A DNA stretch of 64,000 bases, taken from assembly GCA_964642925.1 (NCBI GenBank), contig CAZXPJ010000007.1, positions 10,664-74,663 on the forward strand, in the 5' to 3' direction. Each line of letters opens with the position of its first letter. Position 1 is the stretch's first letter. The translations under genes were made by a program, and so were the position numbers. The notes below the pieces were generated by a model. That model was not told where the DNA came from. It saw only the letters and a list, made by a program, of their open reading frames with translations, and searched no databases. This document shows, piece by piece, positions 33,134-38,519 of this stretch. Origin of the DNA: an uncultured Eubacteriales bacterium. Lineage in GTDB: Bacteria; Bacillota; Peptococcia; Peptococcales; SKKY01.

Positions 33134-36100
33134 TTAAGCAAATATAGATATTTGATTATTTTCCGGTAGTTCTGTAAGCATTCCATGTCTTTGCATAGTT
33201 TCAATTACAGTTTTACTCACTTTTGTACGAATTCTTAAGTCTTCAACGGATTTAAATTCTCTAATATTTCTTTCATTTTCCACGTTCATAGCAGCTGTTT
33301 CACCAACACCTGGTAAAGCTACAAAGGGAGGAATAAGTTGATTATTTTCAATGATAAATTTATGAGCTAAAGATTTTTCTAAAGAGACTTTTTGAAATGT
33401 GAATCCTCTTAAAAACATTTCTAAGGCTACTTCTAATACAATTATCAATCTTATTTCTTTTTGAGTAGCTTGATTACCTAATTCTTGTATTTTTTTTATT
33501 TCATTTAAAATACTCTCTTTCCCTTTTACTATAATTTCAGCATCAAATTCTGCAGCTCTTATGGAGAAAAAAGCAGTATAGAAAGCTATTGGATAATAGA
33601 TTTTAAAATAAGCAATTCTAAAAGCCATCATAACATATGCCACAGCATGAGCTTTAGGAAACATATACTTTATTTTATTACAGGAAGCAATATACCATTC
33701 AGGAACTTTGAATTTTTTCATTTCTTCCTGGTACTCAATTTTAACCCCTTTACCCTTCCGCACATCTTCCATTACTTTAAAGGCTATTAAGGGATCTAAA
33801 TTCATATTTATTAAATATGTCATAATATCATCTCTTGCGGAAATAGCTTCTGATAATTGACATGTTTTATTTTTTATTAAATCCTGAGCATTATTAAGCC
33901 ATACATCTGTACCATGAGAAAATCCACTTATACGAACTAAATCAGAAAAATTATCTGGTTTTGTATCTTCAAGCATCTGTCTTACAAATTTTGTACCAAA
34001 CTCAGGTATTCCATAAGTGCCAATCTTGGACTGTAAGTCCCTCTCTGATACTCCTAAAATCTTAGTAGAAGAAAATAATGACATTACCTCTTTATTATCA
34101 AAGGTGATTTTTTGAGCATCAATTCCAGTAAGATCTTCAAGCATTTTAATCATTGTGGGATCATCATGGCCTAATATGTCAAGTTTTACTAAATAGTCAT
34201 GAAGAGAATGAAAGTCAAAATGGGTTGTAACTGTAAGAGAATTAACATCTTCTGCTGGTCTTTGAAGAGGCGTAAAGTCAGAAGCTTCTTTACTTTTTGG
34301 CACCACTATTAAACCACCTGGATGTTGTCCCGTTGTTCTTTTAACACCGGTACACCCTTTAATCAATCTATTTAACTCTGCTGAATTATAGTAAATATCA
34401 TTTTCTTCAAGATAGTTTTTAACATAACCAAAAGCAGTTTTTTCTGCTACTGTCCCAATTGTACCTGCTCTAAAAACATGATCTTTACCAAATAATTCTT
34501 CTACGTATTTATGTGCAGTAGCTTGATATTCACCTGAAAAATTTAAATCTATATCTGGTACTTTATCCCCTTCGAAGCCAAGAAAAACTTCAAAGGGGAT
34601 ATCAAAACCATCTTTATCTAAGTCTTTGCCACACTTCGGACATTTTTTTTCCGGTAAATCTGCTCCACAACCATACTCACCCTTTATAAAAAACTCAGTA
34701 TAATAACAAGTTGGACACCGATAATGAGGAGCCAAAGGATTTACTTCTGTGATACCAGTTAGTGTCGCTACTAAAGATGAGCCTACAGAACCTCTAGAGC
34801 CTACAAGATAACCATCTTCATTTGATTTTTTAACAAGTTTTTGTGATATAAGGTAAAGAACTGCATATCCATTATTAATTATAGAATTTAATTCCTTATC
34901 AATTCTTTTTGCCACAATTTCAGGCAAATTTTCTCCGTATATTTCTATTGCTTTTGTAATGGTCATTTCTCGTATTTCTTCTTCTGCCCCTTCAATTTCA
35001 GGTGGATAAAGCTTATCTGGTATTGGTCTGATATTATCAACTAAATCTGCTATTTTATTTGGATTAGTTATAACTACCTCATATGCCTTTTTATCATCTA
35101 AATAAGAGAATTCATTTAGCATTTCTTCTGTAGTTCTGTAATAAAGAGGAGGTTGATTAATCGCATCTGAAAAACCTTGTCCTGCTTGGATTATTCTTCT
35201 ATAAATAGAATCTTCAGCGTTAAGAAAATGAACATCCCCTGTAGCAACAACAGGTATATTTAATTCTTCACCTAATTCTATAACTTTGATATTAATGTTT
35301 TCTAAATCTTTTTTCCCTTTTACTATTTCATTGCGAATCATAAAATCATTGTTACCTATAGGTTGTATTTCTAAAAAATCATAGAATTTGCAAATAGTTT
35401 TTAATTCTTCTTCTGTTTTTCCTTCAATTATAGATGTTATTAATTCCCCCGCTTCGCAAGCTGAGCCAAATATTAAACCTTCTCTATATTTTTCAAGAAG
35501 ATCCATGGGAATTCTTGGTACTTTTTTATAGTAAGTTAACTGAGATTCAGATATTAAATGATATAGGTTTTTTAAACCTATCCGGTTTTTCACAAGAATT
35601 ATAAAATGAAAATTTTTCTTTTTTTTCTTCTCTTTTACTTCGTTCTTTTTAAAAACATATGCTTCAATTCCATAAATAATTTTGACCCCATATTTTTCTC
35701 CAGAAAAATATGCTTCAGGAAAAGATTGCACTACTCCGTGATCTGTTACAGCTATTGCTTTATGACCCCATAAAGCAGCTCTTTTTACATAATCATCAAT
35801 TTGATTCATCGCATCGTTCTTGCTCATATTTGTATGTAGATGTAATTCAACTCTTTTTTCTGGATAATTATCTCTCTTTTCATCCACTATTAACTCTTCA
35901 TGACTAGAAAGCATTAAAACATATTCTTTAGAAAATTGATCATAACGAATATTCCCTGACATTCTATAAAAACTATCTTTTTTAACTTCAATAAGTATTT
36001 CTTCTGCTTCTTCTTTTTTCTTTATATATTTGCTTATTATTGAAGAAGTTTTATCTGTAACAGAAATTGTTACTAATACTTTGCCAGTTTTTAGGTCTCT

Positions 36101-36826
36101 TCTCTGGATATCGAAAACTCTACCTTCAATAACAATATTATTTTCTTCTTCTCTGAGAGAGTTAATTTTTTTAATCTCCCCTTGATAACCCTTTAAATTA
36201 ATTTTTTTCCTACTCTTCTTCTTCCAGCTACTATTACTATTTGTATCTTTTTTGCTCTCTTTATTACTAATTTCAGGTGCTTTAACCTCTGGTAAGAATT
36301 CTTCTATTGACTGTAGAGTATCTATATCTTCTAATTCAGGATCCAGTTCAAAAATAATTTTTCTTGTTTTATTATCAGAAACATTAATTTTTTCTTCAAT
36401 TAATAGACCTGCATTCTTCTTCGTAAAATAATTATAGGCCCAGCTTGACCCAGTCTTTATTTTTATTTCATTTCTCTCATCATTATATTCTATCTTAGTT
36501 TTTTTAAAGCAATTACTTAAAACTGGAGCTTCTTCTTTACTGATTATATCGATAAATTGCTTTATTTTGTTCTCATCATTTAAACAATCACAAGTTAGAG
36601 CTGGAATTAATTTAATTTTATCTAGTTTTGGAAGTTTTTCTAATAAGAAGTCTTCTCCTTTTTTTAAAATATCCATATCAAATTGTTTTTTTGGATAAAA
36701 ATATATTTCCCAGGCATTTAAAGCCTGGGAAACTGATACTTTACAGATTTCTAATTCCTTAAGAAAGATAGAAATCTGACAATTATTATCTTTATTAAAT
36801 AATTCTCTAGGTAGTTTTTTATTCAT
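33134..36826 (-). CDS. polC: DNA polymerase III alpha subunit, PolC type, lacking the 3'-5' exonuclease insert
   Basis: NTD and OB fold, PHP (ELHLHT, TDHG, YGIE, GSAC, GDVH), GSRGSVGSS, Zn finger [32 protein letters not shown]; only 1230 aa. Confidence 0.97.
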
Positions 36827-38519
36827 TTAAATAAAATTCCTTTACTTTTGATATTACATTATTAAAATCTATATCTTCAGATTCTGAATCCTTTCTTCCT
36901 TTAATTTCTACAAGATTCTCAGTAATTTTTTTCCCTACTGTAATTCTTAAAGGATATCCTATAAGATCAGCATCATTAAATTTTACACCTATTCTTTCTT
37001 TCCTATCATCTAAAACTACTTCAAATCCTTCTTCACGAAGTTTTAGGTATAGTTCTTCTGCTTTTTGATATTGAATTTCATCATTTACTTGAACTGGTAT
37101 AACTATAACCTGGTAAGGTGCTATATTTTTAGGCCATATAATACCTTTTTCATCATAATTTTGTTCAACACAAGCTGCCATTGTTCTAGAAACACCAATT
37201 CCATAACAGCCCATTACAATTGTCTGTTCTTTACCATTTTCATCTAAATATTTAGCATTAAGTTTCTCTGAATATCTAGTTCCCAGCTTAAATACCTGAC
37301 CTGTTTCAATTCCTTTAGCAAAAATTAATTTACCCCCACATTTAGGACAAGGATCTTTATCAGTGACTTCCCTTAAGTCATGAAATTCTACCTTCGGAAA
37401 ATCTCTTTTAACATGTGTATGAAGGTAGTGGTAACCTTCCTCATTAGCTCCGCATACTCCATCTGTCATATATTGAAGTTCATTATCTGCATAAACAACA
37501 ATGTTTTTTATTCCTATTGGAGAAATTGATCCTGGCTCACAATTAAATAATTCTATAATTTCTTCTTCTTCGGCTTTTTCTAAGAAATCAGTCTTTAATA
37601 CTTTTTTAAGTTTTATTTCATTTAATGCTCTATCACCTCTTAAAGCTGTAACAACTAGTTGCTCATTAGTTTTATAAACTAATGTTTTAATTGTTTCTTC
37701 AGGTGAAATATTTAAAAATTTTACTACTTCTTCTATAGTTTTTTTACCTGGAGTTGCAATTTTTTCTAACTCTTTGCTTTCAGCTTTTTCTTCTTCTAAA
37801 GATATACATTCCGTAATTTCTATATTAGAAGCATATGAACAAGTATCACAATAGGCTATAGTAGCTTCACCATTTTCCGCAAGAACCATGAACTCATGAG
37901 TATCGTCCCCACCAATAGCACCGGAATCAGCTTCAACTGCTCTATAATTTAAACCCATTCTATCAAAAATTCTACTATATGCATCAAACATTTTTTGATA
38001 AGAAACATCTAAAGCAGCAAAGTCCCTATCAAAGGAATAAGCATCCTTCATTATAAATTCACGACCCCTCATTAGACCAAATCTTGGACGCCTTTCATCT
38101 CTATATTTATTCTGAATTTGATATAAATTTAATGGTAGTTGCTTATAGGATTTAACCTCACCTCTTACAATATCCGTAATCATCTCTTCATGAGTTGGTC
38201 CAAGACAAAAATCTCTATCGTGACGATCTTTAAGTCTAAACATTTCGTCTCCATAAACATCCCATCTACCACTTTCAGCCCATAATTCTGCTGGCTGGAT
38301 AATAGGAAGAAGTAATTCTTGAGCATCTGAATTATCCATTTCTTCTCTTACGATCTTTTCTATTTTTCTTAAAACTCTTAGAGCTAATGGAAGATAGCTA
38401 TATATGCCAGCTGCACTCTTTCTGATAAAACCGGCCTTTACTAAAAGCTGATGACTGATTATTTCAGCTTCAGCTGGAACTGCCCTTAGTGTCGGTAATA
38501 ACCCTTTAGATACTCTCAT
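36819..38519 (-). CDS. proS: Proline--tRNA ligase (bacterial type with INS editing domain)
   Basis: LGPTHEE, FRDERRPR-like [20 protein letters not shown] domain [17 protein letters not shown]. Confidence 0.98.

Follow-up and report, generated by a model that had tools for sequence, protein, structure and literature searches.

PolC gene and domain architecture

The window analyzed here, a stretch of 64,000 nt from an uncultured Clostridia-type bacterium, contains on its reverse strand an open reading frame that encodes a genuine PolC replicase, DNA polymerase III's alpha subunit, which lacks the exonuclease normally inserted into this enzyme and carries an intact PHP nuclease site. The gene lies within the run uppS-cdsA-dxr-rseP-ispG-proS-polC, a typical setting of polC in Firmicutes. 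The protein scored 1613.6 bits against the NCBIfam equivalog NF001688 (cut-off 873) and 1454.4 bits against TIGR01405 (cut-off 1043). By Pfam, it contains the domains PHP (residues 327–482), DNA_pol3_alpha, finger and HHH_6, and no match to RNase_T (PF00929) was obtained in this protein even at E ≤ 1.

The position of the missing domain was evident from structural alignments. Against the full-length PolC 9qpc the match breaks into two blocks (query 222–392 with chain 257–429, and query 400–1229 with chain 634–1471), and therefore about 200 amino acids (aa) are absent exactly where the DEDDh exonuclease resides. Against 3f2b, an engineered PolC of Geobacillus kaustophilus from which the exonuclease was deleted (delta-Exo), the alignment is unbroken over residues 218–1230. 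These results bear out an earlier sequence-only reading of this DNA, which had described a PolC without the DEDDh insert but with a complete PHP site, had suggested the alignment as a check on the deletion and had named an RNase_T match within the frame as evidence to the contrary. The linker joining the two PHP halves is likewise exactly as that reading gave it, 13 residues with eight lysines, in frame within a protein of 1230 aa.

The domain order follows that of PolC, with an OB fold N-terminal to PHP, then the Pol3 core, the fingers, the helix-hairpin-helix (HhH) domain and a C-terminal clamp motif. The polymerase machinery seems complete, judged by its motifs. It retains the catalytic Asp sequences PDIDLNF(757) and LDILGHDD(882), the Cys4 zinc motif CPTC(704)/CPKC(729) within the polymerase core, the HhH domain and the clamp motif; the catalytic and Cys4 positions are nearly invariant across the PolC alignment. 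A second QISIF pentapeptide occurs in the N-terminal domain (residues 17–21; window 36764–36778, reverse strand) and may be a coincidence.

Table 1 Features of the exo-less PolC gene in the window, and the separate exonuclease gene found elsewhere in the genome.
Feature	Position	Strand	Remarks
polC	33134..36826	-	DNA polymerase III alpha subunit of the PolC type, exo-less, 1230 aa; above the NF001688 cut-off; no RNase_T domain
PolC N-terminal region	35894..36175	-	aligned with 3f2b residues 7–100
PHP N-terminal half, residues 327–392	35651..35848	-	ligands H329, H331, D338, H363, E388; codons verified
13-residue lysine-rich linker, residues 393–405	35612..35650	-	in place of the ~200-aa DEDDh exonuclease insert
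PHP C-terminal half, residues 406–600	35027..35611	-	ligands H407, C457, D531, H533
Polymerase core (palm, thumb, fingers), residues 617–1035	33722..34978	-	Pfam PF07733 and PF17657
Tandem helix-hairpin-helix domain, residues 1143–1223	33158..33400	-	Pfam HHH_6, E = 5.5e-10
Beta-clamp-binding-type motif QISIF, C-terminal, residues 1225–1229	33140..33154	-	family consensus there QLSLF
proS (prolyl-tRNA synthetase)	36819..38519	-	overlap of 8 nt between its end and the start of polC
Exo-BRCT gene	contig C36, locus L001, 1030..1980	-	316 aa

Exo-less PolC in congeners and in the class

The PolCs of the congeners, one of which is represented by a closed 1.9-Mb genome, are exo-less as well, with lengths of 1206–1229 aa and 66–80% identity to the window protein. 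About 50 independent relatives share this architecture (1190–1263 aa) across the genus, the order and nearly the whole of a small GTDB class. The class comprises 60 genomes of at least 90% completeness, 58 of which match PolC; the exo-less form is almost universal, and exo-containing PolCs (1455–1462 aa) occur in only two or three genomes. Many database proteins of 1190–1275 aa lack PF00929, and a 94%-identical PolC of 1230 aa is known from an independent source.

The low-complexity linker DNA with its A8 run could point to an artefact in which about 600 bp were lost by assembly collapse or in a chimeric metagenome-assembled genome (MAG), yet this is practically ruled out because the junction is in frame and the same architecture recurs in the congeners including the closed genome, in about 50 further assemblies, in the database proteins and in the independent 94%-identical protein, which also answers the collapse at the linker that the sequence-only reading had considered as a possible refutation.

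Conservation and predicted structure of the PHP site

All nine ligands expected of a PHP nuclease site are present at the motifs previously assigned to them: H329, H331, D338 (seven residues after H331), H363 (in TDH), E388 (YGIE), H407 (FHF), C457 (SAC) and D531/H533 (DVH). Their codons span window positions 35842–35228, within the segment 35220–35855 delimited earlier. The PolC set HHDHEHCDH conforms to the 'active' PHP motif HHDHEH[C/H]DH (PMC12926913), and such sites are classed as 'active' in the literature (PMC3919608, PMC12926913).

Conservation of this set was followed in two samples of PolC. In the first, consisting of 72 exo-less and 71 exo-containing proteins of mostly clostridial origin, the nine ligands were invariant in 143 of 143. 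In the second, consisting of 79 PolCs of named origin, the full motif was found in all 19 exo-less proteins, and a broken motif in 26 of the 60 exo-containing ones. Taken together, the ligands are kept in 91 of 91 exo-less PolCs, and broken PHP sites are confined to PolCs that contain the exonuclease. The commonest break is a D-to-N exchange at the eighth ligand (HHDHEHCNH), seen in about 24 PolCs of the Sporosarcina group. Heavier decay was found in two of the 26, from Savagea and from one Planococcaceae genome, and one Vallitaleaceae PolC reads NHDYEHCDH. The same D-to-N exchange is present in G. kaustophilus PolC (GNVH in the 3f2b alignment), an enzyme reported to be without PHP exonuclease activity (PMC5636811); mutation of the equivalent D226 inactivates the Mycobacterium tuberculosis enzyme (PMC5636811). 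Such confinement of broken PHP sites to proteins with a DEDDh domain is what one would expect were the retention of at least one proofreader obligatory.

An AlphaFold2 model of residues 318–625 was confident (predicted local distance difference test 89.9, predicted template-modelling (TM) score 0.86), with only the linker block weak at about 66. In Foldseek searches it superposed on the PHP folds of both PolC and M. tuberculosis DnaE1, with query-based TM-scores (TMq) of 0.84 for 3f2b, 0.89 for 9qrl and 9qpc, and 0.73–0.75 for the DnaE1 structures 7pu7 and 5lew.

DNA polymerases, exonucleases and mismatch repair in the genus

The source assembly (1.65 Mb, 98% complete) encodes a full-length DnaE1-type alpha subunit of 1138 aa, which scored 1586.7 bits against PRK06826 (cut-off 1260) and 1451 bits against PRK05673 (cut-off 1002), and below the cut-off against PRK06920. 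Its nine PHP ligands are intact, and it has an internal QVSFF clamp motif. The genome thus pairs the exo-less PolC with DnaE1 rather than DnaE3. A second polC or a hidden exonuclease-bearing copy was looked for and not found, as PF07733 matches in the genome are confined to DnaE and PolC.

The single RNase_T-family gene of the genome, on a 6.3-kb contig, encodes a DEDDh exonuclease with a C-terminal BRCT domain (called Exo-BRCT below). Its exonuclease domain is most similar to a PolC exonuclease domain (PDB 2p1j, E = 3.9e-15). Among NCBIfam models the protein scores best against PRK06195 ('DNA polymerase III subunit epsilon'), at 244.9 bits and thus short of the cut-off of 373. A clamp-like peptide, QPAIF, follows the exonuclease domain; an alignment of 104 family members (the window species' protein and 103 homologues) showed no conservation of this peptide, which was rejected as a clamp-binding motif. 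Neighboring genes encode Hsp20, a small GNAT-like protein, a 3-methyladenine glycosylase-like protein and a DMT-type membrane protein. The family is annotated only as 'exonuclease domain-containing protein' and is patchy in Firmicutes, including Bacillus, Anaerocolumna and Pelosinus. PolC of Bacillus normally has its exonuclease.

The gene for Exo-BRCT is absent from all five sampled congeners. Moreover, the Pfam RNase_T search gave no match in these five genomes (G001–G005, including the closed 1.9-Mb chromosome), whereas it was positive in 10 of 10 bacterial control genomes; five of the six genus genomes are thus without any DEDDh-family exonuclease. The other 55 genomes searched have mostly one or two RNase_T matches, typically a DinG-type exonuclease-helicase fusion of about 930 aa. 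Because it is missing in the congeners and its family is patchy, Exo-BRCT is an accessory gene of the species and not a conserved partner of exo-less PolC. On the same grounds, the occurrence of the family in genera such as Bacillus and its absence from the congeners, we discarded the idea that the PolC exonuclease had split off as a gene of its own.

MutS is kept in four of the five congeners, and therefore the lineage has not given up fidelity control; it was not found in the fifth, whose assembly is 76% complete. In the closed congener, a match to MutS domain I (G003:C1:437561-437896) lies in an open frame of 146 aa, compared with 874–895 aa elsewhere in the genus, and mutS may be disrupted or frameshifted there.

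Probable proofreading by the PHP site and its alternatives

We consider it rather likely that PolC proofreads through its own PHP site, for which we infer metal binding and exonuclease activity. The DnaQ-like DEDDh exonuclease has been deleted from the PHP loop, with a short disordered linker left in its stead, and the trinuclear-metal PHP nuclease site of PolC itself would remove mismatches in the manner of M. tuberculosis DnaE1 or Thermus Pol III. For this, a mismatched primer 3′ end would shift from the polymerase site into the PHP site, and the co-resident DnaE1, whose PHP site is likewise intact, could assist. The deletion is structurally tolerated, since the engineered delta-Exo PolC of G. 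kaustophilus (3f2b) folds and binds DNA and dNTP. The five congeners combine an exo-less PolC with the lack of any RNase_T-family gene, and hence no DEDDh proofreader is available there.

Several points weigh against this reading. PHP exonuclease activity has so far been demonstrated for no PolC. The nine ligands are equally conserved in clostridial PolCs that contain the exonuclease, so conservation alone is no proof of a proofreading role; the site could instead be kept for structural reasons, for pyrophosphatase activity or for some other function (PMC3666897, PMC4822814). The motif counts are phylogenetically non-independent, and the tree used below for the losses was made with FastTree. 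Finally, the source genome does hold one DEDDh gene, that of Exo-BRCT, which looks active and in whose sequence the catalytic residues D-E-D-H-D are readable.

The strongest alternative is that PolC is not the bulk replicase and needs no proofreader of its own; the bulk of the chromosome would then be copied by DnaE1, leaving PolC a restricted or specialized role, as Timinskas et al. have speculated (PMC3919608). The complete DnaE1 with its intact PHP site and clamp motif is in line with this, as is the restriction of exo-less PolC to systems with both PolC and DnaE1 (PMC3919608). We nevertheless regard it as unlikely. PolC still occupies the canonical proS-polC locus, its catalytic and clamp motifs are intact, and it is conserved at 50–57% identity in nearly all of the class genomes of at least 90% completeness (the 58 of 60 given above); this retention, the locus and the conserved motifs argue for an important role. 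The DnaE1 alternative is, moreover, compatible with an active PHP site too.

Proofreading in trans, by a separate DnaQ-like exonuclease as epsilon does for Escherichia coli DnaE, is clearly less probable still. Exo-BRCT would be the candidate, being the only RNase_T-family gene of the genome, with readable catalytic residues, an exonuclease domain nearest that of PolC, an epsilon family as its best if sub-threshold match, and the QPAIF peptide behind the domain. Against it stand its absence from the five congeners, which share the exo-less PolC and are devoid of DEDDh genes, the scattered distribution of its family through Firmicutes, the unconserved QPAIF, and the situation in most other genera of the order, which have only the DinG-type fusion of about 930 aa. 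The sequence-only reading had left open whether the replicase proofreads with its PHP domain or recruits a separate exonuclease; the first is now the best-supported reading and the second is disfavored. Similarly, the search for dnaE and a stand-alone DEDDh gene that it had recommended yielded both DnaE1 and Exo-BRCT, the latter not supported as a partner.

Extending proofreading by the PHP site to the lineage, we see about an even chance that in this genus the PHP sites of PolC and DnaE1 are the only replicative proofreaders, and that across PolCs DEDDh insert and PHP site behave as interchangeable proofreaders on the principle of 'never neither', with the insert lost at least five times.

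Evolution of the exonuclease loss

To follow the exonuclease state, a FastTree phylogeny of PolC was computed with the insert columns left out. Seven changes of state are needed on this tree, at least five of which are forced by well-supported branches, and the DEDDh insert was lost at least five times. No substitution was found to recur with the loss (exo-containing consensus of at least 80%, with a different majority residue in at least three of the four exo-less clades), and convergent compensatory substitutions were therefore rejected. Repeated loss without recurrent substitution fits a PHP proofreader that was already functional and redundant.

Some individual PolCs deviate from the two common forms. 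Two Lachnospiraceae MAGs (L038 and L040) have PolCs of 1230–1243 aa with a segment of 49–53 residues at the insert position; these segments look like partly eroded remnants, between a full exonuclease and a short linker. Two genomes of the same order as the window species encode exo-containing PolCs of 1455–1462 aa (L095 in G013 and L096 in G028). These cluster in the tree with distant exo-containing sequences and apart from the exo-less PolCs of the family to which the genomes belong, a grouping that suggests replacement by transfer, or misplaced genomes. One contig of a 71%-complete MAG (L097; G053, contig C92) has a tandem pair of exo-containing PolC-like frames, 1637 and 1670 aa long and in different reading frames, probably owing to an assembly duplication or a large insertion.

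The lysine-rich linker

In PolC, the exonuclease is inserted into a loop that in M. tuberculosis DnaE1 lines the groove to the PHP site (PMC5636811), so that on structural grounds the linker could be imagined to touch the primer strand. Its length, however, is about 5–15 residues among 27 aligned exo-less relatives, and 83 distinct exo-less junction segments (including five flanking residues) range in length from 10 to 54 (median 18) and in net charge from -9 to +6 (median -1). Lysine-rich linkers are confined to the nearest congeners and, within the genus, are specific to this species group; one further congener has RDNKS. In a genome of 31% GC, an AAA-rich spacer is nothing unusual. With neither length nor charge conserved, a functional basic linker was rejected, and the earlier suggestion that it may contact DNA or a partner was not supported, given that length, sequence and charge all vary among the exo-less relatives.

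Significance

In Firmicutes, PolC serves as the essential replicase and as a drug target, and the inserted DEDDh exonuclease is credited with its fidelity. Proofreading by a PHP site has been demonstrated only in DnaE1-type enzymes (Mycobacterium, Thermus). Natural exo-less PolCs lend themselves to testing whether a PolC can proofread by way of its PHP site, and the genus described here is an unusually clean system for it, with an exo-less PolC, a DnaE1 with intact PHP site, MutS and, in five of six genomes, no DEDDh nuclease, so that a DnaQ acting in trans can be excluded on genomic grounds. If the reading extended above to the genus is true, this would be the first case in which a PolC-type replicase is shown to use its PHP site for proofreading.

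Comparison with known systems

The exo-less PolC variant itself is not new. It was described as early as 2014 and is frequent in uncultured Clostridia, and our analysis therefore adds an example and comparative support rather than a discovery; new are the genus with five congeners free of any DEDDh gene, the counts of PHP ligands and the number of losses. The survey in question (Timinskas, Balvociute, Timinskas and Venclovas, NAR 2014) found 6% of PolCs to lack the Exo insertion (PMC3919608), all in Clostridia and Negativicutes besides one extra PolC copy in Thermotogae, in agreement with the sequence-only reading, according to which comparative surveys had noted such proteins. Clostridia and Negativicutes pair PolC with DnaE1, and the PHP metal sites are conserved (PMC3919608). 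A survey of 2026 states that Clostridia usually have three 'active' proofreaders (PMC12926913). In the literature collection searched, we came across no biochemical work on a PolC that lacks the exonuclease by nature. Cultured examples include Zhaonella formicivorans (WP_227766605.1, 1234 aa) and Acidaminococcus hominis, and the 90%-identity cluster of a congener's PolC has members labeled 'Clostridia bacterium' and 'Eubacteriales bacterium' at NCBI.

With the exo-less PolCs of the 2014 survey (PMC3919608), the window protein shares the lack of the Exo insertion in PHP, the pairing with DnaE1 and the conserved PHP metal site. Nothing fundamental differs; what is added is a further lineage and the five congeners without a DEDDh gene.

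With canonical PolC (Bacillus subtilis, Staphylococcus aureus and G. kaustophilus; 3f2b, 9qpc), it shares the order N-terminal domain-OB-PHP-Pol3-HhH, the Cys4 zinc, catalytic Asp and C-terminal clamp motifs, and its place in the proS-polC locus. It differs by the absence of the DEDDh exonuclease of about 200 aa. Identity to G. kaustophilus PolC is high over residues 218–1230 (1238 bits with phmmer; in Foldseek, 46% for the PHP region), but the window protein has D and not N at the eighth PHP ligand, and thus all nine ligands, one of which is mutated in the G. kaustophilus enzyme.

The trinuclear zinc site of M. tuberculosis DnaE1 consists of five His, three Asp/Glu and one Cys (PMC5636811). 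With the PHP exonucleases of this enzyme and of Thermus Pol III alpha (PMC5636811), the window protein shares the nine-residue set, beginning with HxH and the D seven residues later, and, according to the structural model, the PHP fold at the TMq values given above for 7pu7 and 5lew. It differs from M. tuberculosis DnaE1 in being a PolC with another domain order, and in a loop of 13 residues compared with 29.

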